Origin: a virus
Reading direction: 5' to 3' (one strand)
Virus genome (UHGV): UHGV-1366919
DNA: 64,000 nucleotides
This document shows, piece by piece, positions 1,443 through 63,959 of the stretch. Within the stretch, counting starts at the first letter, position 1. Each line of letters opens with the position of its first letter. Both the position numbers and the translations under genes were made by a program. The notes below the pieces were generated by a model. The model saw nothing but the letters and a program-made list of their open reading frames with translations, did not search any database and was not told the DNA's origin.

Positions 1443-2741
1443 ATGGACGAAGAAAGACGTTTAGCAAAGAACAAGCTAATCTCCCTTCGAAAGAAGGAGA
1501 CGCTTCTTCGTCACGAAAACATGGTCACTAAGACCTATGAAGTCAAAATTCAAGAAAACAAGCTAAGGAAAAGACAACGCGAAGACATAGAGAGAATTTT
1601 CCTTGAGGCAAAGTGGTACAAGAACTATATTCTGAACTGGATGAACGAGAGCAAAGACAACAAACTCTCCAAATTCAACACAAAAATCACCCAGATAACC
1701 AAGAAGGACAAGGATATGAATGATGTCCAGGTGGAGATTAAGAGACTTCCTGCTCAATCTCGCCAATGCCTTGTTTCTCGCATGGTCGCTAACCTAAGGG
1801 CCATGGCGGCTCTCCGTAAGAAGGGTCTGCAAAAGCTGGGTAAATTAAAGTTTTCCAAAGAAGAAACCGCCATTGATTACAAACAGATCGGCAATAGCCA
1901 CAAAATCATCAACAAGAAACGCATTCGTTTGCAAGGCATCAAGGGTGAATTGTTGGTCAATGGGCTTGAGCAGTTTTATAATATCCCGGGTGTAGAGGTA
2001 GCCAACGCAAGATTGTTACACCGAGCAACGGGATATTTCGTACAATTTGTTTGTTTTCTCCCGAAGGCGTATTCTCAAGAAACGCCAGAAGCGGAGAAGA
2101 AAATAGTAGGGGTAGATTTCGGGTGTCAAACCGCATTCACGCTCTCAATGGGCGAGAAAATAACTGCCTCGGTTCCAGAAAGTGAGCGACTAAAGAAATT
2201 GCAACGTGATTTTTCGCGAAAGCAGAAAGGCTCAAAGAATCGAGAAAGAGCGGGATTGAAAGTCCGAAAGGAATACCAGAAGATAACCAACCGTAAAAAC
2301 GACATGGCTAACAAGATTGTTCACAACATGACTAAGAACAGCATCGTTGTTATTCAGGATGAACAACTCAAAGCGTGGCAATCGGGTAATCACAGCAAGG
2401 CTGTACAGTACAGTGTTTTGGGGCGAGTCAAAGCAAAGCTCAAACTACATAACAACGTTGTAATCTTGCCTAAGAATTATCCAACCACGAAGCTATGTAC
2501 AAACTGTGGCAAATGGCATGATGAACTAAAACTCTGGAATCGCACATTCAAGTGTAAGTGTGGTGTAGAGGAAGATCGTGACATTCATGCCGCGCAAAAC
2601 ATGGTTTGGTTGTATGAACACATTTATGTAGGTGCGGAACACACCAAACTTAAGCGTGTGGAGATGGAGTCCCTAGTTAAAGGAATTATCAATTCCGGAG
2701 ACCAAACTCTGTCGGCGAAGCATGAAGCTGCCATCCCTTAA
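1443..2741 (+). CDS. tnpB: TnpB (OrfB, RuvC-like RNA-guided nuclease family) of IS605-type element
   Basis: 432 aa. RuvC-I GVDFGC, C-terminal zinc finger CTNCG...CKCG and RuvC-III DRDIHAAQNM. Confidence 0.85.
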   Translation: MDEERRLAKNKLISLRKKETLLRHENMVTKTYEVKIQENKLRKRQREDIERIFLEAKWYKNYILNWMNESKDNKLSKFNTKITQITKKDKDMNDVQVEIKRLPAQSRQCLVSRMVANLRAMAALRKKGLQKLGKLKFSKEETAIDYKQIGNSHKIINKKRIRLQGIKGELLVNGLEQFYNIPGVEVANARLLHRATGYFVQFVCFLPKAYSQETPEAEKKIVGVDFGCQTAFTLSMGEKITASVPESERLKKLQRDFSRKQKGSKNRERAGLKVRKEYQKITNRKNDMANKIVHNMTKNSIVVIQDEQLKAWQSGNHSKAVQYSVLGRVKAKLKLHNNVVILPKNYPTTKLCTNCGKWHDELKLWNRTFKCKCGVEEDRDIHAAQNMVWLYEHIYVGAEHTKLKRVEMESLVKGIINSGDQTLSAKHEAAIP

Positions 2742-3643: not shown

Positions 3644-4906
3644 ATGATAGTTCAAAGAACAGAGATACATATAATCAAAGAATCCAATCCTGTCTACAAT
3701 TGGATTTTAGAGGAATGTCTTCGTTCAAGAAATCTTTATAACAGAGTATTATATGTTTACCGTCAAGCCTTTACAGGGAAACACGATAATATTCCTGAGT
3801 TTAAAGATATAATAAATCATGATAAATTCATCGCTTCTTTTGCTCTTGTAAACAGACTAAATGAAATAAAAGATATTGATTTTTGCTCAATGATGAAGAA
3901 AAATGGAGCACAACAAATTGTGTTTCAAGTGGATAGAACAATGAAATCTTGGTTTGCTGCTCTTAAATCTTATAAGAGAGACTCGTCTAAATTCAGAGGT
4001 AGACCAAGAATTCCGTCTTATAAAAAGAAAGATGAGTTAAATTGTTTAACTTACACTACTGCTGACGCTAAATTACAAAAAGATGGAACTATTAACCTTA
4101 GACGCGATATTAAACTGCCGATTCATACAAATCTCTCCTCTTTCCAACAAGTTCGTTTAATACCTAAAACTGGTTATATTCAAGTAGAAATCATTTACAA
4201 TAAAGATATAAATGAAAATCACTTGGATCAAGCCAGAGCTATAGGAATTGATTTAGGATTGAATAATTTAATGGCTATAACTTCAAACATTGGTAATATA
4301 TCTAACCTTGTTAATGGTAGACCATTAAAATCTATAAATCAATACTATAACAAACATAAGGCTCATTTAATGAGTTTATTATTAAAAGGTAAATTGAAGA
4401 GTTCTAAGAGACTTAGACGATTGGAAATGAAGAGAATGATGAAAATCAAGGATTATCTTCATAAAACTTCAAGGAGAATCGTTGAACTAATGGAACAGAA
4501 TAATATAGGAACTTGTTTTATTGGTTATAATAAAGGATGGAAACAAGAAATTAATATTAGGAAGAAAAATAATCAAAACTTTGTTTCTATTCCTTATTCA
4601 TTACTAATAAACATGTTAAAATATAAGATAGAGGAAAAAGGAGGTCATTTAATTGAATTAAACGAGGCTTATACATCTAAATGCTCTTTCTTGGATAATG
4701 AAGAAGTCTGTAAACATGAAACTTATAAAGGAAAGAGAATAAAAAGAGGTTTATACCTGAGCAATAAAAAGAAAGTAATTAATGCTGATATAAATGGGTC
4801 ATTGAATATTCTTAAACGAGGAATGAAATTTGATTTTGATTTTAAAGATTGTTTCTTTAGACCAGAAAAAATAGATATACAAAAGAAACTCTTGAATTTT
4901 GCTTAA
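3644..4906 (+). CDS. tnpB: solo TnpB (IS1341-like OrfB)
   Basis: 420 aa. GIDLGLNNLMAIT (RuvC-I), zinc finger CSFLDNEEVC, NADINGSLNI (RuvC-III). Paralogous to 62559-63896. Confidence 0.8.
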   Translation: MIVQRTEIHIIKESNPVYNWILEECLRSRNLYNRVLYVYRQAFTGKHDNIPEFKDIINHDKFIASFALVNRLNEIKDIDFCSMMKKNGAQQIVFQVDRTMKSWFAALKSYKRDSSKFRGRPRIPSYKKKDELNCLTYTTADAKLQKDGTINLRRDIKLPIHTNLSSFQQVRLIPKTGYIQVEIIYNKDINENHLDQARAIGIDLGLNNLMAITSNIGNISNLVNGRPLKSINQYYNKHKAHLMSLLLKGKLKSSKRLRRLEMKRMMKIKDYLHKTSRRIVELMEQNNIGTCFIGYNKGWKQEINIRKKNNQNFVSIPYSLLINMLKYKIEEKGGHLIELNEAYTSKCSFLDNEEVCKHETYKGKRIKRGLYLSNKKKVINADINGSLNILKRGMKFDFDFKDCFFRPEKIDIQKKLLNFA

Positions 4907-8851: not shown

Positions 8852-11725
8852 ATGTTGAATGGATTAGAAGATGTATTAAAGGCAGATACAGCAAAGAGTA
8901 CAAAAATTGATTGTACACAGTCAGTAGAAGAATATATTAATAAAAGTGACTGGCGTATATTTGCTAATGCTAATACAGGATATAGTAATGCTGGATTAGT
9001 AAATGGACTAGCTGGTAAAGTAATAGCCAATTATTGGTTAGATAAAGTTTATTCAAAAAAAGAGGGTGATGCACATAGAAATGGCGATTATCACATTCAT
9101 GATTTAGATTGTTTAAGTGGTTATTGTTGTGGTCATGATTTACAACGATTATTAAATGAGGGTTTTAATGGTGTAGTGGGAAGAGTAGGTTCAAAAGCAC
9201 CAAAACATTTTAGAGAAGCTTTATATCAAATGGCTAATTTCATTGGTATTTTACAAGCTGAATGGGGTGGTGCTCAAGCGTTTAGTTCTTTTGATACATA
9301 TCTTGCACCTTATGTTTTTTTTGATATGTATTATAGTGGTTTAACTTATAAAGATATTAAGAAAGCCATCTTAAATTTCATTTATAATTTAAATGTGCCA
9401 TCACGCTGGGGACAATCTCCGTTTTCAAATATTACAATTGACTGGATTGTCCCTAATGATATGTCTGCCCAATATCCTCTAAGAAATGATAAGAATTATT
9501 TTAAAACAATTTATGAAGATTTATCAGATGAAGAAAAAACAAAATTTAGAACGACAGTTATTGAAGAACTTAAAAAACGTTTAGAGAATATAGAAAATTC
9601 TATAGATAGTCTATTTGATAAAATAACATATAAGTTATTTCAAAAAGAAATGAATCTTATTAATAAAGCTTTTTATGAATGTTTAAACGAGGGCGATATT
9701 AATGGATTACCTTTTACATTCCCAATTCCTACAGTTAATATTACAGAAAATTTTGATTGGGATGGAGAAAATACTGATCTTCTTTTTGAAAATGCTGCAA
9801 AATATGGATCTTCTTATTTCCAAAATTTTATTGGTTCGCAATATAAACGAGATGAAAATGGTAATTTAGTTCCTGATCCAAATGCTTATAGTCCAAATGA
9901 TGTACGAAGTATGTGTCCACTAACTGGTGATACGGAAGTATTAACACTTAGTAACAGAGGTATTAGTAAGACACAAATAGTACATTTAAATGAAAATAGC
10001 CATAAAGTATTTTCTAATGGAAATTGGTTTAATTTTAAACGTATCGAAATTAAGCCACAAAAAGTATATGAAATTAAATTATCAAATGGTACTTCTATAA
10101 AAATGGGAGAACATCATTTACAACCAATATATGGTAGTACTAAAGAATGTAAAGATCTTAAAGTTGGTGATTTAATACCATTTAATAGTCAAATAATTAA
10201 TTGGGACAAAGCTGTTGGTGATTATCATCTTGGTTATGCAATCGGTGCTTATTATGGTGATGGCTCAACCGATGGTAATACTGTAATATATTCTCTTTCT
10301 GTTGATGAAAAAGATAATATAACTGAAGAAAAATTACGAAAATTTTGGACTTCTAATGGGTATCATGTTAAAACAATAAATGTTAACAATGTTCGTTCAA
10401 TAGTGGTTACTGGAAATGCTTTTAATTTAATTGGACGATTTTGTAGTGGTAATAATGCTCTTACTAAAGGTATTCACAGTTTAGCATTTAGTTTATCAGT
10501 AGATGCTCGTCAGGGAATTATAGATGGATATATTGCTACAGATGGTAATAAAGATCGCAGGCGAATTAGTACTTCATCCCAAGCAATGGTTAATGATTTA
10601 TTAACTTTGTTTACTTTACAGGGTAAAAAAGCTTTATTATCATCTATAGATAATCGTGAAAATCGTCTAGGAAGTAATCCAAATTATATTGTTTCTTATC
10701 CTGAAAAAGACAATTATAGTGATTTTTATCAAACTATTGATGGTATAATATATTTTATAATTAAAGAAATAAAAGAAATTCCGCAACAAAAACTTTATTG
10801 TATTGAGGTTGATAATGAAGATCATACATTTGTATTAGGTAACGGGATGATTACGCATAATTGTCGTCTTCAATTAGATAAGCGAGAATTACGAAAACGT
10901 GGAGGAGGCTTATTTGGTTCAGATGCACAAACTGGCAGCATAGGCGTAGTAACAATTAATATGGCCCGCCTTGGCTATCTTTACAAAGGTAACTTTCCGC
11001 TTCTTAAGAAAAAACTTATTCATTTAATGGAATTGGCTAAATCGACTTTAGAAAAAAAGCGTTCTTTTATTAATGAATTATATCTAAGAGGATTATACCC
11101 ATATACAAGACGATATCTTAAAGGCTTTAATACATTTTTTAGTACAATCGGCGTTAATGGAATGAATGAAATGGTTCGTAATTTTTCAAATGACGAATAT
11201 GATATTACTTCATATGAAGGCCAGAAAATGTGTATAGAACTATTAGATTTAATTCGCTCTAAAATGTCTGATTATCAAGAAGAAACTGGAAATCTTTATA
11301 ACCTTGAAGCTACCCCGGCAGAAGGAACAACTTATCGATTTGCCAAAGAGGATATTAAACGTTTTCCGGACATTATTCATGCTGGTACTGAAAAAGAACC
11401 TTACTATACAAATAGCTCTCAGCTCCCGGTAAATTTTACGGATGATCCCTTTGAAGCACTTGATAAGCAAGATGAGCTTCAATGCAAATATACTGGTGGT
11501 ACAGTAATCCATTTATATATGACAGAAAGACTTTCTAATGCAACAGCTTGTAAAAATCTTATAAAAAAGGTACTTACAAATTATCGCTTGCCATATATAT
11601 CTATAACTCCAACATATTCTACATGTCCAATACATGGTTATATTCCTGGAAATCATGAATTTTGTCCAAAATGTGACCAAATAATTTTAGAAGAATATGC
11701 TAAAGAAATTGATTTTAACGAATAA
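8852..11725 (+). CDS. nrdD: anaerobic ribonucleoside-triphosphate reductase (class III RNR) NrdD, intein-containing
   Basis: GDYHIHDLD... NrdD-type N-terminus and C-terminal zinc-ribbon TCPIHGY...FCPKC. 957 aa, or 641 aa without the intein. Confidence 0.85.
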   Translation: MLNGLEDVLKADTAKSTKIDCTQSVEEYINKSDWRIFANANTGYSNAGLVNGLAGKVIANYWLDKVYSKKEGDAHRNGDYHIHDLDCLSGYCCGHDLQRLLNEGFNGVVGRVGSKAPKHFREALYQMANFIGILQAEWGGAQAFSSFDTYLAPYVFFDMYYSGLTYKDIKKAILNFIYNLNVPSRWGQSPFSNITIDWIVPNDMSAQYPLRNDKNYFKTIYEDLSDEEKTKFRTTVIEELKKRLENIENSIDSLFDKITYKLFQKEMNLINKAFYECLNEGDINGLPFTFPIPTVNITENFDWDGENTDLLFENAAKYGSSYFQNFIGSQYKRDENGNLVPDPNAYSPNDVRSMCPLTGDTEVLTLSNRGISKTQIVHLNENSHKVFSNGNWFNFKRIEIKPQKVYEIKLSNGTSIKMGEHHLQPIYGSTKECKDLKVGDLIPFNSQIINWDKAVGDYHLGYAIGAYYGDGSTDGNTVIYSLSVDEKDNITEEKLRKFWTSNGYHVKTINVNNVRSIVVTGNAFNLIGRFCSGNNALTKGIHSLAFSLSVDARQGIIDGYIATDGNKDRRRISTSSQAMVNDLLTLFTLQGKKALLSSIDNRENRLGSNPNYIVSYPEKDNYSDFYQTIDGIIYFIIKEIKEIPQQKLYCIEVDNEDHTFVLGNGMITHNCRLQLDKRELRKRGGGLFGSDAQTGSIGVVTINMARLGYLYKGNFPLLKKKLIHLMELAKSTLEKKRSFINELYLRGLYPYTRRYLKGFNTFFSTIGVNGMNEMVRNFSNDEYDITSYEGQKMCIELLDLIRSKMSDYQEETGNLYNLEATPAEGTTYRFAKEDIKRFPDIIHAGTEKEPYYTNSSQLPVNFTDDPFEALDKQDELQCKYTGGTVIHLYMTERLSNATACKNLIKKVLTNYRLPYISITPTYSTCPIHGYIPGNHEFCPKCDQIILEEYAKEIDFNE
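9914..10861 (+). mobile_element. intein (316 aa) with LAGLIDADG homing-endonuclease domain inside NrdD
   Basis: N-terminal splice junction M|CPLTGDTEVL and C-terminal GMITHN|C. LAGLIDADG motifs LGYAIGAYYGDGS and IDGYIATDGN. Excised extein junction reads RSM-CRLQL. Confidence 0.75.
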
Positions 11726-17112: not shown

Positions 17113-17371
17113 GTTTAGGCTTATAAGAATCTGATATGATAAAATTATTAAACTTCTTTGTATCAAAATCATAATCAAAGCTAATGCAAAGATAATAATT
17201 TCGAAAATTAATCAGCATATCTTCAAATTCAGAATAAGGAATCTTTTCCTTACAATATCTGATGAATTCTTTATACCCTTCTTTCCATTTATCAGGATTA
17301 GAGTTCATATTCTTTTCATTAAGAAACTTCCACAAATAAGTTTCTTCTTTAGTCAAATGTTCATATGCCAT
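17096..17371 (-). CDS. hypothetical protein
   Basis: 91-aa ORF. Confidence 0.3.
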   Translation of the reverse strand: MAYEHLTKEETYLWKFLNEKNMNSNPDKWKEGYKEFIRYCKEKIPYSEFEDMLINFRNYYLCISFDYDFDTKKFNNFIISDSYKPKLTDSE

Positions 17372-47168: not shown

Positions 47169-48200
47169 TTATTGTGAAACCAATTCACAATACATCATTC
47201 TCTTACCAATCATTTTGGTAATCGTATCTCCTATACATTCCATTACTTCAATCTTGGAGGTATTATGCCTATAGGAAAACTCATGGATATACCTCTTCAA
47301 ATGCTTAGGAGACATGTAATGGTAAACTCCATAATAACCTCTTTTCAGTAGAGACCAGAAGCTTTCAATGGAATTAGTATGAACCTCTCCATTGACGTAT
47401 TGTTTCCCCTTATGGTTGACAAACTCATGGACAAATCCGACAAGTCCTTTATAGGATTTGAACTCATCCGTAAACACATTGGAATTCCTCTCTACATGTT
47501 TTCCGATGAATCCTTGTAAATTGTAAGCGGATGTATCGTCGATATGTTTGACGATTACTTTTCCGTTTCTCTGTTTGGCTCCGATCACAATCAATTTACC
47601 TACTGAACCTCTTCCCTTGTTCAGCTTCTTGGAAAAGTGTTTGTTGGATTCCTTTCCTCCAATGAAGGTTTCATCTACTTCCACAATACCGTCCAACTTC
47701 TCCTTTTTATCTTTCATCCAAACTTCTCTGATCCTGTGACAGAGGAACCAGGCAGTCTTCTGAGTGATTCCAAGTTCTTTTGAAATCTGGATGGAGGAAA
47801 TGCCTTTTCTGGAAGTCGCCAACAGATACATACACATCAACCATTTGTGAAGAGGCAATTTGGATTCCTCTAAAATTGTACCAAATCTGACGCTGAAGAA
47901 CTTTCTACAATCTTTACAGCGATAAGGCATCGGTTTTTGATCCTTACATTCGGTGATATAATTGGAACCACAATGAGGACAACGGACATGACCATTCCAT
48001 CTTTTTAACTCAAAATATTTCCGGGCGGATTCCTCATTAGGAAATTTGGAGAAGAAGTCATAGAGAGAAGTGTATTTGAGCTTAGTTTTTCCCATATCAT
48101 CGCTTGGTTGATAGGGAAATTTTGTCGTGTTTTGATTGGTTCGTACGCGTTTATTTTCAGCGTATTGAGAATTATTTTTTATTACAATTTTCTTACCCAT
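47169..48200 (-). CDS. IS1595-family (ISXO2-like) DDE transposase
   Basis: N-terminal zinc-ribbon (CPHCGS...CKDCRKF), HTH, DDE core (DETFIGGK...). GC-richer than the host sequence. IS ends not resolved. Confidence 0.7.
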   Translation of the reverse strand: MGKKIVIKNNSQYAENKRVRTNQNTTKFPYQPSDDMGKTKLKYTSLYDFFSKFPNEESARKYFELKRWNGHVRCPHCGSNYITECKDQKPMPYRCKDCRKFFSVRFGTILEESKLPLHKWLMCMYLLATSRKGISSIQISKELGITQKTAWFLCHRIREVWMKDKKEKLDGIVEVDETFIGGKESNKHFSKKLNKGRGSVGKLIVIGAKQRNGKVIVKHIDDTSAYNLQGFIGKHVERNSNVFTDEFKSYKGLVGFVHEFVNHKGKQYVNGEVHTNSIESFWSLLKRGYYGVYHYMSPKHLKRYIHEFSYRHNTSKIEVMECIGDTITKMIGKRMMYCELVSQ

Positions 48201-49780: not shown

Positions 49781-49928
49781 ATATCAAGACTCAGCGGATT
49801 TGTTTTAAAAGAACAATGCTTAATGATTGCTGTTTGAGTCTTTCAAAGAATTTAAATCTTCTTATTAGAGAATTGTTGGAGTATTGGGCATTTACAATCC
49901 AATTTTTATAGCAACTGGCCTACCAGTC

Positions 49929-50293: not shown

Positions 50294-50380
50294 TGGTACT
50301 ACCGGCGGGACTTGCACCCGCACGCTCTTACAAGCAACAAATTTTAAGTTTGCAATGTCTTCTAGTTCCATCACGGTAGC
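50294..50380 (-). tRNA. tRNA-Leu (anticodon TAA), type II with long variable arm, encoded CCA, non-canonical D/T loops
   Basis: Acceptor GCTACCG/CGGTAGT. Anticodon stem GCAAA/TTTGT with loop CTTAAAA. Variable arm TGCTTGTAAGAGCGT. T-arm GCGGG-TGCAAGT-CCCGC (G55). D-loop lacks GG. 3' ACCA. Confidence 0.5.
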
Positions 50381-50665
50381 TTATGCGCTAGACACATTAA
50401 TTATTAAGAATTACTCTTAATACCTGGAATCGAACCAAGAATATCCATTGTATAGGTTATTGCTGTATGTGTCTTACAATGACTAGACTCATTTTTTATT
50501 ATATACACCAATAATATTTTAATTTGCTGTACGAGTCTATAAAATCTTTATAACTAACTAAGCACCAAAGGTTTGACTCGAACAAGCAACTAACAACTAA
50601 CAACTAACGAGTAACGAGTTAACAGCTTGCCCCTCTACTATTGAGGTACTTTGGTATTCAATTAA

Positions 50666-53431: not shown

Positions 53432-53506
53432 TGGAGGCTTCAATCGGTTATGCTCCGATGTTACCGGGTTACAAATCCGGGGTTTTACTGATTAAACTAT
53501 AAAGCC
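53432..53506 (-). tRNA. tRNA-like gene, probable tRNA-Thr (anticodon TGT) with atypical D-loop (no GG), T-loop AGCATAA and A31-C39 mismatch
   Basis: Acceptor GGCTTTA/TGAAGCC, D-stem GTTT/AAAC, anticodon loop TTTGTAA, T-stem ATCGG/CCGAT, encoded CCA. Packed 6 nt and 2 nt from the neighbouring tRNAs. Confidence 0.4.
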
Positions 53507-53508
53507 TT

Positions 53509-53582
53509 TGGTACTTTGTATCGAAATCGAATCGATGACTTCTGAGTGGAAATCAGATGTTTTACCACTAAACTAACAAAGC
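53509..53582 (-). tRNA. tRNA-Gly (anticodon TCC), CCA encoded
   Basis: All stems perfect: acceptor GCTTTGT/ACAAAGT, D GTTT/AAAC, anticodon TCTGA/TCAGA with loop TTTCCAC, T ATCGA-TTCGATT-TCGAT. Confidence 0.7.
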
Positions 53583-53606
53583 ATTAACAAGACACATTTT
53601 CTTTAT

Positions 53607-53662
53607 ACTCTACCAATTGAGCTAGCATCCTCTTCTCAAAGATGCCTAGGATTCGAACCCAG
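53607..53662 (-). other. tRNA-like halves in permuted order: 3' half (T-arm CTGGG-TTCGAAT-CCTAG + acceptor strand) directly followed by 5' half (acceptor GGATGCT + canonical D-arm GCTC-AATTGGTA-GAGT)
   Basis: The two acceptor strands are complementary (CTAGGCATC/GATGCTAG) and joined by an 11-nt loop. No complete cloverleaf in normal order can be drawn. Confidence 0.35.
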
Positions 53663-53794
53663 AACCGTTCATTTTTCATATGACTAAGATAATTGTTGTT
53701 AATGTCTTTTTTATGAGAAGACTTAGAGATATTAGTTTCATCTTTCCTGATTACTTATGTTCATTACCACGTAAAGGTTTCTCCATTAATGAAC

Positions 53795-54452: not shown

Positions 54453-54989
54453 TTATAAATTATATTGTGGATAATGTAATTCTAAATGACAATTAGAACA
54501 TAATAAATCACATTTATCAGCTTCTATTTGTAAAATATTAATAGGTTTAGAACTAAATGCACTAGCACTTAAACTAAAACATTTTTTAGTATTTTCTCTA
54601 TGGTGAAAAGATAAAACAGCTAAATTTTTATTATAACCACAAATTTGACATTTTCCACCTTTTTGAGATATAAAAAATAATTTTCTATTTTTATATCTAA
54701 GTTTAAATGATTTATAATCTTTTTTAAAATTACGAGAAGTATTTTTAATTTTAGACCTACAAGAAATTGAACAATATTTTTGTTGTAAACCTGTTAATAA
54801 ATTATTACAAACAATACAATAACGTTTAATTTTATTATTTCCTTGAAATACTGTTTTTAAATTATATTCTTTTAATCTATTTTTAACTGTCATAGGTGAA
54901 CATTTTAATTCTTTTGCAATTTTTCGTGTACTTAATTGCTTATTAATTAAATGTTCTAATTGTTCCTTAGAAATATTTGACTTACCCAT
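54453..54989 (-). CDS. HNH homing endonuclease with N-terminal HTH
   Basis: CQICGYNKNLAVLSFHHRENTKKC...CSNCHLELH HNH motif; extremely AT-rich; adjacent to a tRNA. Confidence 0.65.
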   Translation of the reverse strand: MGKSNISKEQLEHLINKQLSTRKIAKELKCSPMTVKNRLKEYNLKTVFQGNNKIKRYCIVCNNLLTGLQQKYCSISCRSKIKNTSRNFKKDYKSFKLRYKNRKLFFISQKGGKCQICGYNKNLAVLSFHHRENTKKCFSLSASAFSSKPINILQIEADKCDLLCSNCHLELHYPQYNL

Positions 54990-59333: not shown

Positions 59334-60434
59334 TCATTGACGTTCGGCTTTTAGGTTTTGGGGACTATATACTCCCAAATGGAGAATGTTAATAGCTGCA
59401 TTAATATCTGCATCCATCTCAGCTCCACAAGTCTTACAGTGATATACTTCACCTTGTCGACTTGACTTATTAACAGTATTACAAACGTGGCATCGTTGAG
59501 ATGTATAAGCAGGAGGAACTTTAATGAGTAAGAAACCTTCTTCTTCACTAAATCTACCTAACTTATTCATTACTTTAATGTAACTCCACCTTTGTAACTT
59601 GTTGTTAAACTTTTTGGAAAATTTTTTACCTCGTTTTACGTTCTTAAGATTCTCAACTATAATCTGCCCACAATCTTTATGCTCATTATAAAACTTTTTA
59701 ACGGTTCGGTTGATTGCTTGATCTCTTTCAATTAATGCACGTTTGAAAGCTTTAGACCGTTGTTTCTTACGAGAAATCTTTTCATAGATTCCTTCTAATT
59801 CTTTGCCGTAAACCTTTCCGTCACTACATGCGAGTAGTTTCTTGTAACCGCAATCGACACCAATCGGTCTACCATCATGCTTCGCTACTTCTTCTTTCTC
59901 CCAGTAAAGACATAACATTCCATTATCTCGAAGCATCATTGTTCGATTATTAAACTCGAATCCTTGATCTTTCAAACAGTTACAAGCATAATGAAACTTA
60001 ATAGGAATATTGAATGTAAGATAACGTGTTTTTGTTTTAAGATAAGGAGAAAAAATACGAATAAAATAATCAAACTCACCTTCCTCACATTTTTCAATAT
60101 CCCATAAATGGTAGTTAATATTAACTGAATGAGATTTGATTATAGGTTTAGTAAATGGTTTGTGACATTTTTTACCTTTATATTTTGCTAGTACCGAACG
60201 ATAAGTTTGTACTGCTTCACGATAACAATCAACTCTCCAGTTAGCATTTACTATATCATTAAGAATTGGTAACTCTTTACTCGAAAGATTAGTTTTAAGA
60301 GGCAGTTTCTTTTCGTAAATGAGGTCGATATATTTCTGTAGTAACCATTGATAATCAGATACTATCTTCTTATACAATACCTTTTTACCGGTATTGGCAA
60401 ACTTAATTGTATGTGAAGAAGTACGTAATATCAT
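59334..60434 (-). CDS. tnpB: TnpB (IS605 OrfB family)
   Basis: GVDCGYKKLLACS (RuvC-I), zinc finger CHVCN...CKTCG, DADINAAINI (RuvC-III). Confidence 0.8.
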   Translation of the reverse strand: MILRTSSHTIKFANTGKKVLYKKIVSDYQWLLQKYIDLIYEKKLPLKTNLSSKELPILNDIVNANWRVDCYREAVQTYRSVLAKYKGKKCHKPFTKPIIKSHSVNINYHLWDIEKCEEGEFDYFIRIFSPYLKTKTRYLTFNIPIKFHYACNCLKDQGFEFNNRTMMLRDNGMLCLYWEKEEVAKHDGRPIGVDCGYKKLLACSDGKVYGKELEGIYEKISRKKQRSKAFKRALIERDQAINRTVKKFYNEHKDCGQIIVENLKNVKRGKKFSKKFNNKLQRWSYIKVMNKLGRFSEEEGFLLIKVPPAYTSQRCHVCNTVNKSSRQGEVYHCKTCGAEMDADINAAINILHLGVYSPQNLKAERQ

Positions 60435-62504: not shown

Positions 62505-63959
62505 AGGCTCTGTCCTACCACAGTGTTGATTTTTAAGGAATCTTTCATGCTGTAAGACTTAATGTGTTGATGTTACCATCAAGACAATGGGTGAAGCCCC
62601 ACCCTCTACACCTTGGTCGGAGACCGACATCGGGTGCTTCTTTTCTATATCGATTTTAATTGGATTAAACATTGATTTGTGAGGTGAGAATGTTTTGCCG
62701 AGACCTCTACGCAGTATGTTAGCGGCACCATTGATGTCGGCGTTTAACATGCATCCAACAGAGCTTACAAACAACCCACGTTTCTTTCTCTTACCCATAT
62801 ATTCATCATAGTGACAAATATCCTCGTCGTCAAGGAATGAGCATTTGGAGGTGTGAGACTCATTGTGAGTTTCCACATTGATACCGGCTTCACTTGCTTT
62901 GTAAGACAACATCCAAATGAGTTGAGAATGTGGAATGCTCACAAAGTTCTGATTGTTTCGTTTACCAATGTTTACTTCCTGCTTCCATCCATCATTATGA
63001 CCGATAAAGCAGTTTCCGATTTTGTTTTCTACCATCAAATCAACCACTGAACGACTAGCCTTGTGCATATAATCTTTTGTTTTGTTATTGCGCTTTCTAG
63101 TAAGTCTCCTGAGTTTCTTTGATGTATTCATATCTCTCTCAGCCAACTTAGATACAATTTCAGCGTAAGTCTTGTTATAATATTGGTTGATGCTCTTTAA
63201 TGGTCTGCCATTAACAAGGTGGGATATAGACCCCTCGTTTGAAGTTACAGCCATTAAGTTATCAATACCAATATCTATCCCTACTGCTTTGTTGTAGTCT
63301 AAGTCAACCGGAGAAATCTTTGTTTTGTAGAAGATTTGTATCTCTATACATCCTTGCTTTGGCACAAGACGAAGCTCTTGCAAGGAGGTGAGCTTCGTTT
63401 TAATTGAAAGCTTAAAGTCCTTGCGAATGTTTATCGTTCCGTCTTTCTGGATTTTCGCGTCATTATAAGAGAAGGCAACGGAAAATAACTTATCGCCATT
63501 TGCTTCTTTCTTATACCTGGGCATCCTTGGTTTCCCAGTGAATTTCTGTGGATTCTTCTTGTATGAGTTAAGAGACCTGAACCAAGTAGAGAATGATTCG
63601 GCACACTTCTTCACAGTTTGTGCTGCTTCGTTATCCTTTAACAACGATCTAAAATCTTTGTCGTTTAACTTCCTCATTCTGGTGATTAGGTCAAACACAG
63701 AGATAAATTTCTCTTTCCTGATTATGTCTGTGTATTCAGGAATGTTCTCGTGTTTGCCACTAAACGCTTGGCGGAGAATGTATAACGTTCTATTGTAAAG
63801 AGATGTATTCAGAGAGCATTCTTGCACAGCCCAACCATAGAAGGATGTCCCTTCTTTTATCTGGTGCGTTTCAACTCTGATTGCCTCTTCTTGCATTCGC
63901 TGTTGTATATATTATACCATAGGTTTATCAGAAATCAACACTGTGGTAGGACAGAGCCT
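62505..63959. mobile_element. TnpB-carrying element bounded by perfect 28-bp terminal inverted repeats
   Basis: aggctctgtcctaccacagtgttgattt at 62505-62532 and its exact reverse complement at 63932-63959, each ~30 bp from the tnpB stop/start. Element is GC-richer than the host sequence. Confidence 0.65.
62559..63896 (-). CDS. tnpB: TnpB (IS1341-like), paralog of 3644-4906
   Basis: 445 aa. GIDIGIDNLMAVT, zinc finger CSFLDDEDIC, NADINGAANI. N-terminal region collinear with the 3644-4906 protein. Confidence 0.8.
   Translation of the reverse strand: MQEEAIRVETHQIKEGTSFYGWAVQECSLNTSLYNRTLYILRQAFSGKHENIPEYTDIIRKEKFISVFDLITRMRKLNDKDFRSLLKDNEAAQTVKKCAESFSTWFRSLNSYKKNPQKFTGKPRMPRYKKEANGDKLFSVAFSYNDAKIQKDGTINIRKDFKLSIKTKLTSLQELRLVPKQGCIEIQIFYKTKISPVDLDYNKAVGIDIGIDNLMAVTSNEGSISHLVNGRPLKSINQYYNKTYAEIVSKLAERDMNTSKKLRRLTRKRNNKTKDYMHKASRSVVDLMVENKIGNCFIGHNDGWKQEVNIGKRNNQNFVSIPHSQLIWMLSYKASEAGINVETHNESHTSKCSFLDDEDICHYDEYMGKRKKRGLFVSSVGCMLNADINGAANILRRGLGKTFSPHKSMFNPIKIDIEKKHPMSVSDQGVEGGASPIVLMVTSTH

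Follow-up and report, generated by a model that had tools for sequence, protein, structure and literature searches.

A phage RNA with a permuted tRNA-like body, conserved among distant phages, as a probable Y-RNA-like partner of a Ro60-like protein

The 64,000-nucleotide (nt) stretch of virus genome UHGV-1366919 analysed here, referred to as the window, is phage-like and has a cluster of transfer RNA (tRNA) genes on the minus strand, in which tRNA-Met and tRNA-Pro are followed by a 56-nt element (53662..53607) and then by tRNA-Gly, tRNA-Thr and tRNA-Gln, with an Asn-like tRNA and tRNA-Glu farther on. An earlier note, made from the sequence alone, had flagged this element as two tRNA halves in permuted order. 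Our results show that the element is the core of an RNA of about 125 nt, unit W1 (53708..53583), and comparison with homologues indicates a real, conserved phage RNA that belongs to a large, unannotated family. W1 is probably a Y-RNA-like tRNA mimic, with the element as the tRNA-like body of an RNA that partners a phage Ro60-like protein.

Read directly from the minus strand, the element consists of a T-arm, an acceptor-like stem closed by a loop, and a D-arm. The T-arm, CUGGG-UUCGAAU-CCUAG (53662..53646), has covariation at four of its five base pairs (bp) in the family, and it is followed by the acceptor 3' strand GCAUCUU (53645..53639), the 7-nt loop UGAGAAG (53638..53632) and the acceptor 5' strand AGGAUGC (53631..53625). 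These strands form a closed stem of 7 bp, including one U.G pair (53625..53645), and all seven pairs covary. Two nucleotides, UA (53624..53623), separate the stem from the D-arm, GCUC-AAUUGGUA-GAGU (53622..53607), in which two of four pairs covary and 97.9% of cells are paired. The T-arm, the complementary acceptor strands and the D-arm are exactly as the earlier note had read them; its 11-nt acceptor loop, though, is in fact a 7-nt loop, as 5 bp had been counted in a stem that has 7 with the U.G pair. It was also right that the next gene lies too close for a normal tRNA: tRNA-Gly, placed at 53582..53509 by ARAGORN and Rfam, begins 24 nt past the D-arm, and therefore an ordinary tRNA body cannot fit. 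On the element itself neither program called a tRNA or a transfer-messenger RNA (tmRNA).

The whole unit W1 (about 126 nt on the minus strand, 53583..53708) aligns with 11 homologues and matches R1, a covariance model of the family, with 110 bits over 53710..53581. It runs in the order helix H 5' strand, conserved motif, anticodon-arm mimic, T-arm, closed acceptor stem, D-arm, helix H 3' strand and tail. Helix H brings the ends of the RNA together by pairing AAGACAU (53702..53708) with GUGUCUU (53589..53595), an A-rich linker lying between the D-arm and the latter strand. The 5' region reads AAGACAU and then UA-ACAACAAU, so that an ACA(G)CAAU-type motif adjoins helix H; this motif (53692..53699), whose family consensus is ACAGCAAU, is proposed as the protein-binding site on the basis of alignments and enrichment. 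The anticodon-arm mimic UCAU-AUGAAAA-AUGAA (53668..53683), with a 7-nt loop placed 5+5 nt ahead of the T stem, is followed by CGGUU. The 3' tail, GUUAAU (53583..53588), lies directly against the first base of tRNA-Gly (53582), and the same abutment of a unit 3' end on a tRNA or tRNA-like 5' end was found in homologous loci L013 and L023 and in two further units of the window, W3 and W4. The minimum free energy fold of the single W1 sequence contains all of these helices with a z-score of just -1.66, so the structural support comes from comparison and not from thermodynamics.

That comparison was made with 80 viral contigs that encode distant homologues (36-43% identity) of the Ro60-like protein of the window. 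A pattern scan of these contigs showed that a T-arm, a short hairpin and a D-arm, with no tRNA body following, recur in many of them, and about 35 full-length homologues were found in unrelated phage contigs and in cultured phages, with short units in Listeria phage A511. In the family, AGACAC-NN-ACAGCAAU precedes this arrangement and GUGUCU(U/A)G follows it, and both flanks are conserved. When 12 permuted units were aligned with MAFFT and folded by RNAalifold with no structure imposed, four helices were recovered: two of 7 bp (helix H and the closed acceptor stem), the 5-bp T-arm and the 4-bp D-arm. Compensatory changes occur at 17 of the 23 base pairs, four of the seven helix H pairs among them. 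Paired cells amounted to 95.2%, against 36-49% when the partners were slid by 1-3 columns, and none of 500 shuffles attained the observed value on any of five measures. R1, built from the permuted units, gave 96 matches at E<0.01 in 1.55 Mb, all 96 on the strand of the Ro-like gene. Ten high-scoring members from outside the seed, each with its own self-complementary sequence between T and D, were aligned independently, and helix H (7/8 pairs) and the T-arm covaried again. With recurrence at many unrelated loci and covariation in all four helices, the arrangement is not due to chance, and the search of related genomes proposed by the earlier note found it in many distant phages.

The closest relative of the window, contig L001, has a Ro-like protein 99% identical to that of the window and an RNA region 93% identical, and the two RNAs differ by compensatory changes from C-G to U-A, located in the T stem and at two acceptor-stem positions, the opposite of what is expected from a decaying remnant. 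This bears on the possibility, raised by the earlier note, that W1 is what is left of two adjacent tRNA genes after deletions, a pseudogene or a "dimeric tRNA". The element does sit in a tRNA cluster, and the authors who described YrlA, a bacterial Y RNA, warn that dimeric tRNAs can give false positives, since the T-arm of one tRNA together with the D-arm of the next can mimic it (PMC4201824). However, the acceptor strands pair across the 7-nt loop in a stem that covaries at every position, the expected 5' half is absent upstream of the element and the 3' half downstream, the flanking helix H and motif are conserved, and the arrangement is maintained with covariation across distant phages. Two ordinary tRNA genes at the homologous locus would have favoured deletion, and L001 has the same permuted arrangement instead. 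The chance that W1 is a remnant is very slight, and we regard this explanation as excluded.

Equally excluded, with a probability close to nil, is that the element represents the acceptor/coding junction of a two-piece tmRNA. The permuted order of T-arm and acceptor recalls such genes, but ARAGORN, which detects permuted tmRNAs, and the Rfam models tmRNA and tmRNA_permuted found nothing here, the unit is only about 125 nt long with a canonical D-arm, and neither a tag reading frame nor a pseudoknot region precedes tRNA-Gly; the earlier note had already set tmRNA aside, and these results agree with it. A one-piece phage tmRNA (Rfam 95 bits, tag peptide predicted by ARAGORN) was seen at 17280..17580 of L045, a contig that also has two permuted Y-like units.

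The term "permuted" proved to be appropriate in a fuller sense than the earlier note had given it, because homologues also exist in the unpermuted order. About 45 distinct units of this kind were recognised by inspection and by script. Each starts with an open acceptor stem of seven perfect bp and a D-arm, from which an A-rich linker leads to a closed hairpin of the type ...RUCU-loop-AGAY..., and runs on through NN-ACAGCAAU, a small hairpin and a T-arm to the acceptor 3' strand. RNAalifold folded 27 of them into a cloverleaf in which 20/22 pairs covary and the acceptor pairs are all intact in every sequence. The closed hairpin corresponds to helix H, as can be seen from GUGUC-loop-GACAU in L063 against GACAU...GUGUC in the window, and CAGCAA is invariant or nearly so in the alignments of both permuted and unpermuted units. 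On this comparison, W1 is a circular permutation of its unpermuted homologues, and the family takes three forms: unpermuted, permuted (the window, with the topology of YrlA) and hairpin-only, with no tRNA body. At some family loci Rfam calls overlong "tRNAs" of 113-119 nt.

Several loci combine these forms in other ways. In L042 (4671..4786) helix H and CAGCAAU enclose a genuine tRNA-Gln, while in L011 (8878..9000) the helix H scaffold surrounds three arms (D, anticodon-like and T) that lack an acceptor stem. A head-to-tail array in L023 (11491..11935) alternates unpermuted tRNA-like units with hairpin-only units, each starting just after the preceding discriminator base and ending just before the next 5' end.

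The mimicry extends to the anticodon arm. Among 89 T-arm-bearing units, a 7-nt loop closed by at least 3 bp was found in 49 with a variable loop of length 4 or 5, compared with 2-10 at other offsets, and loops of 7 nt (37 units) were favoured over other lengths (1-14 units). The loops of these 49 mimics have U33 in 41, a purine at position 37 in 40 and A38 in 37. The mimic adjoins the T stem at exact tRNA spacing, and its position and spacing imply that helix H branches off inside the 5' strand of the anticodon stem. This slide and loop-length control was used in place of a rejoining test in which ARAGORN called W1, joined in silico, as tRNA-Phe(GAA); about 20/20 controls with a shuffled anticodon arm were called as well, and the rejoining test was therefore discarded as evidence.

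Four tRNA arms at exact spacing, with a U33/R37 anticodon-like loop, raise the possibility that W1 is a true tRNA gene, circularly permuted or split, that yields a working Phe-like tRNA. In such a scheme, RNase P and a 3' enzyme would open the acceptor loop, helix H would hold or guide the halves, and a phage RNA ligase would seal the anticodon stem after removal of helix H. RNA ligase genes do lie nearby, 7 bp is the acceptor length that permits RNase P cleavage of Mycobacterium smegmatis YrlA (PMC4201824), and the unpermuted homologues have perfect 7-bp acceptors with diverse anticodon-like loops, one L023 unit having a Pro-like UGG loop where the 21 kb examined gave no call of an ordinary tRNA-Pro. 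However, the anticodon-like triplet differs between close relatives, being GAA (Phe, in AUGAAAA) in the window and AAA (in CUAAAAA) in the 93%-identical L001, and many loops violate tRNA rules, for example with C37. The junction of W1, by inspection and folding, is a 7-bp helix between single strands of about 18 nt and 9 nt and lacks the bulge-helix-bulge, in which 4 bp are flanked by two 3-nt bulges, and the open reading frames (ORFs) scanned included no splicing endonuclease. Moreover, the most conserved part of the RNA, helix H with ACAGCAAU, would be thrown away in maturation, hairpin-only units have the same ends with no tRNA body, and the rejoining result does not discriminate. A maturing permuted tRNA gene is thus unlikely. 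The likeness to circularly permuted tRNA genes suggested by the earlier note stands for the order of the halves and for the acceptor strands, 7 bp across a 7-nt loop, and nothing observed points to a decoding tRNA that matures in the algal or archaeal manner.

The proposed partner of W1 is a 494-residue protein with the Pfam domains DUF2828 and DUF7788, encoded on the minus strand at 43146..44630. Searches of PDB sequences with phmmer and hmmsearch returned nothing relevant, and it was the fold search alone that was informative. An AlphaFold model made from 40 homologues (predicted local distance difference test score 87.7, predicted template modelling score 0.88) was compared with PDB structures by Foldseek, and the top nine matches were all full-length Ro60/TROVE proteins (E 4.5e-9 to 4e-7, template modelling (TM) scores 0.46-0.57), the Thermus phage phiLo protein 9kop being one of the nine; after these came vWA/MIDAS domains. 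The predicted model thus has the helical-repeat ring and the vWA/MIDAS fold by which Ro60/TROVE proteins are recognised. Near the gene, the window encodes two RNA ligases and NUDIX, NADAR and NAMPT proteins. The protein has more than 6,800 metagenomic homologues and is found in 710 cultured phage records, which include Felix O1-like, Listeria A511/P100-like, Staphylococcus, Enterococcus, Campylobacter, Aeromonas and Vibrio phages, Bacillus phage Thrax1 and mycobacteriophages, where it is annotated as "Ro-like RNA binding protein".

RNA and gene are linked across the family, the RNAs lying on the strand of the Ro-like gene and usually less than 1 kb from it. On the gene strand, the density of ACAGCAAU is 2.39 per kb in the 500 nt upstream of the gene and 1.46 per kb in the 500 nt downstream, against a background of about 0.13 per kb and 0-0.2 per kb on the opposite strand in the same bins, an enrichment of 10-18x within 500 nt of the gene. 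A copy of the motif is present within 1 kb of the gene in 72 of the 80 loci. In the reciprocal direction, a viral collection was scanned for AGACACNNACAGCAAT alone, and 120 loci were returned; the stored stretch of 26 of them contains the Ro-like gene, in every case on the strand of the motif and at a median of 547 nt. Among the first 100 of these loci, the gene was present in 13/22 that were confirmed by R1 and in 10/78 that were not (Fisher p=2.8e-5), and in eight of the nine confirmed loci without the gene, the sequence available to one side is shorter than about 2.2 kb.

W1 could instead be a tRNA-shaped sponge or decoy, aimed at tRNA-targeting defence nucleases or tRNA-modifying enzymes of the host, that acts independently of the Ro-like protein, the linkage reflecting a shared tRNA and RNA-repair region, and a full tRNA mimic with variable anticodon-like loops, located inside tRNA clusters with RNA-repair genes as neighbours, would fit such a role. 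However, helix H and ACAGCAAU are common to the hairpin-only units and peak within 500 nt of the Ro-like gene on its strand, the reciprocal test from RNA to gene was positive, and the copy in mycobacteriophage LeBron adjoins the gene in a 7.4-kb examined stretch where no tRNA is annotated. We consider the independent decoy improbable, although it deserves more weight than the deletion remnant.

Members of the family were identified by R1 in cultured phages, and those in Bacillus phage Thrax1, mycobacteriophage LeBron, coliphage SUSP1 and Listeria phage A511 are all unannotated. Thrax1 has one copy that fills the gap between tRNA-Met and tRNA-Leu (727-855 of L085, 85.8 bits) and a second one at 1117-1244 (74.3 bits), while the LeBron copy (4526-4657 of L083, LeBron 40268..40399, 69 bits) occupies the gap after the gene of the Ro-like protein gp53. 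The SUSP1 unit (5458-5590 of L084, 64 bits), located between tRNA-Asp and tRNA-Lys, is conserved in 248 Felix O1-like records, where it is mostly unannotated and sometimes lies under "hypothetical protein" or tRNA labels. In A511, three tandem units (2700-2973 of L082, 28-35 bits; NC_009811.2, about 300 nt upstream) stand directly upstream of gp178, which encodes the Ro-like protein, with an RtcB gene 1.3 kb downstream, beside the Ro-like gene, and these three matches coincide in kind with three highly transcribed regions of a P100-like phage (PMC12282133). Immediately upstream of the A511 units, a match to the ROOL RNA falls just under threshold (1507..2058 of L082, 87.5 bits vs 99.1).

Several observations weigh against a Y-RNA-like partner of a Ro60-like protein, some of them specific to the copy in the window. 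The score of the element with the YrlA model is far under threshold and the YrlA motif GNCGAAN0-1G is absent. W1 has an A where the family has a near-invariant G (ACAACAAU vs ACAGCAAU), and its helix H is weaker than that of L001, with a U.G pair and a mismatch (53692..53708 in the window, 5119..5135 in L001), so this copy may, judging by its sequence, be partly or slightly impaired. The Ro-like protein has no Pfam TROVE or PDB sequence match, its Pfam domains being DUF2828 and DUF7788 only, no ORF of at least 250 residues in the window matches Pfam TROVE, and its assignment to Ro60 stands on a predicted fold with a TM score of about 0.5. W1 lies about 9 kb from the gene, compared with 4.8 kb in L001 and less than 1 kb in most loci, and is separated from it by an IS1595 transposase (47169..48200, minus strand), which lies between the RNA units and the gene, and by other genes; the transposase may explain the unusually large distance. 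Finally, the genes are nearly always found in tRNA clusters, and part of the linkage could reflect a shared location rather than partnership.

A Y-RNA-like role for W1 remains the probable one, and its processing, protein binding and function are inferred as follows. W1 would be made within a polycistronic transcript of the tRNA cluster, and its 3' end would be set by the RNase P cut at the 5' end of the adjoining tRNA-Gly; that units end a few nucleotides before tRNA or tRNA-like 5' ends suggests that RNase P forms their 3' ends. A scan for promoters and terminators in the window gave counts no higher than in shuffles, and the best promoter-like site (54486..54459, minus strand), upstream of tRNA-Met, is at most suggestive of a polycistronic transcript. 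The RNA folds, as covariation supports, into a complete tRNA look-alike with a loop-closed acceptor end and with its own ends paired in the additional helix H, which leaves the 5' side of the anticodon stem beside the conserved ACAGCAAU. Helix H and this motif may then be the dock for the ring-shaped DUF2828/DUF7788 protein, while the tRNA-shaped body could recruit or distract factors that recognise tRNA, candidates being the nearby-encoded RNA ligases and, on the host side, PNPase or other exonucleases and defence nucleases. The outcome would be an aid to the phage in RNA repair or counter-defence.

A bolder extension, which we hold to be doubtful, is that a single tRNA-derived RNA family of phages can be converted between its circular permutations in infected cells. 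RNase P would open the acceptor end and a phage ligase encoded nearby (Rnl or RtcB) would seal at helix H, or the reverse, with the Ro60-like ring as the platform, and the ribonucleoprotein would be what enables Bas63 gp130 and other Ro-like proteins to overcome host defences, Ppl for instance. In its strongest form, if true, some members would mature into functional tRNAs, and their genes would be the first of the permuted or split kind beyond archaea and eukaryotes.

Even in its simpler form, a Y-RNA-like role would concern a large number of phages. Ro60-like (DUF2828) genes are present in at least 710 sequenced phages, which include the model and therapeutic groups of Felix O1-like, Listeria P100/A511, Staphylococcus and Campylobacter phages and cluster L mycobacteriophages, and the ends and structure of their candidate Y RNAs are now defined, with a conserved motif as the putative binding site and a covariance model at hand, so that the hypothesis is directly testable. 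The family shows that a tRNA mimic can reproduce all four arms and that both circular permutations can occur within a single RNA family, for which tmRNA had been the main precedent. It also shows that phage annotation overlooks a widespread class of structured RNA or mislabels its members as tRNAs or ORFs.

The window has three more units, all on the minus strand, whose ends are in common with those of W1. W3 (50381..50477; R1 40.4 bits, E=3e-4) has helix H (AGACACAU/AUGUGUCU), ACAGCAAU, a T-arm and an 8-bp hairpin with no D-arm. The other two, read from the sequence with no R1 match at E<0.01, are bare hairpins: W2 (about 50483..50538) is AGACUC..GAGUCUAG with ACAGCAAA, and W4 (about 49782..49842) is AAGACUC..GAGUCUUG with ACAGCAAU and ends at tRNA-Glu. 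A further hairpin, GUUCAUUA...UAAUGAAC and then AUAAGUAAU (53794..53750, minus strand), lies directly after the discriminator base of tRNA-Pro and is kept in L001; its ends resemble those of the hairpin units of the family, but it lacks ACAGCAAU.

Other minus-strand tRNAs of the window are also unusual. A 94-nt tRNA-Asn(GUU)-like gene (50562..50655; called by ARAGORN, Rfam 42.9 bits) has GTTA/GTTAGTT repeats as its variable region, and two tRNAs found by Rfam were missed by ARAGORN, a tRNA-Thr (UGU) at 53435..53506 with the non-canonical T-loop AGCAUAA and an 84-nt tRNA at 50297..50380, directly after W3. When the DNA of the tRNA region was compared with cultured phages, tRNA-Met alone matched, and no close cultured relative of the window phage was found. 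Elsewhere, the window has four TnpB/IS605-OrfB-like genes (1443..2741 and 3644..4906 on the plus strand, 59334..60434 and 62559..63896 on the minus strand) and an intein-interrupted anaerobic ribonucleotide reductase gene, NrdD (8852..11725, plus strand). Despite the TnpB genes, a TnpB guide RNA was rejected as an identity for W1, as the family tracks the Ro-like gene in phages that were not selected for TnpB.

In relation to known systems, circularly permuted tRNA genes have reportedly been described by Soma and colleagues, in 2007, in Cyanidioschyzon merolae and some archaea. W1 is similar to them in having the 3' half upstream of the 5' half, a short acceptor linker and termini in the anticodon-stem region, and differs by its bacteriophage setting, the absence of a bulge-helix-bulge, an unconserved anticodon and termini that carry a conserved module resembling a protein site. 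With two-piece tmRNA it has in common a tRNA-like T-arm and acceptor and the occurrence of one RNA family in permuted and unpermuted gene orders, whereas W1 has a full D-arm and no tag ORF, pseudoknots or tmRNA model match.

Among phage systems, Thermus phage phiLo encodes a Ro60 protein with the small RNAs Yrl1 and Yrl2 (PMC12135203), and the window resembles it in having a phage Ro60-fold protein with small RNAs, which in phiLo are encoded immediately upstream. Unlike W1, the phiLo RNAs are stem-bulge-stem structures with a CGAA motif that are not described as tRNA-like, and the phiLo protein is recognisable as Ro60 by sequence. Bas63 gp130 is a Ro60-like protein that counters the Ppl defence, and its authors guessed that some of the neighbouring "tRNA genes" are Y RNAs (PMC11482910); near the homologue of the Listeria P100-like phage CKA15, three abundant transcripts were proposed as possible Y RNAs (PMC12282133), and LeBron gp53 has been called Ro-like with no RNA mentioned (PMC13148394). 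In the RNA literature searched, DUF2828 is not named and the Bas63, P100-like and LeBron papers do not identify the RNAs; the phage list of Chen et al. 2014 may include some members of the family.

The closest parallel is YrlA. Y RNAs of the YrlA type mimic tRNA and have their genes next to Ro60, also in 22 phages that have annotated TROVE proteins; they have near-invariant T and D stem-loops with a variable "acceptor" stem-loop between them and paired ends, carry the GNCGAAN0-1G motif as a putative Ro60 contact, and their gene lies up to about 4 kb from Ro60 (TROVE) on the same strand (Chen et al. 2014, PMC4201824). In a permissive Rfam scan, the sole non-tRNA match of the element was a full-length alignment to YrlA (RF02553) with 26 bits (E=0.003), and homologues scored 37.5-39.8 bits (LeBron 39.8, Thrax1 37.5), so that the family, at 26-40 bits, is always below the gathering score of 69, which was not reached in eight further loci either. 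It is also unlike YrlA in lacking GNCGAAN0-1G, the 5' region of W1 reading AAGACAUUAACAACAAU and that of the family AGACAC-NN-ACAGCAAU, in having an anticodon-arm mimic besides the closing helix, in its DUF2828/DUF7788 partner in place of a Pfam-TROVE Rsr, and in having an unpermuted, tRNA-ordered form as well. Since the score and motif differ and the partner is not Pfam-TROVE, W1 is better seen as a variant distinct from YrlA, though Y-RNA-like. What it has in common with YrlA is the order of T-arm, variable closed "acceptor" stem-loop and D-arm with near-tRNA loops, the pairing of its 5' and 3' ends, here as the covarying 7-bp helix H, a 7-bp acceptor stem like that of M. smegmatis YrlA, companion RNAs that lack the full tRNA module in the manner of YrlB, and an occurrence in phages on the strand of a Ro60-fold gene, which lies less than 1 kb away in most loci of the family and about 9 kb away in the window.

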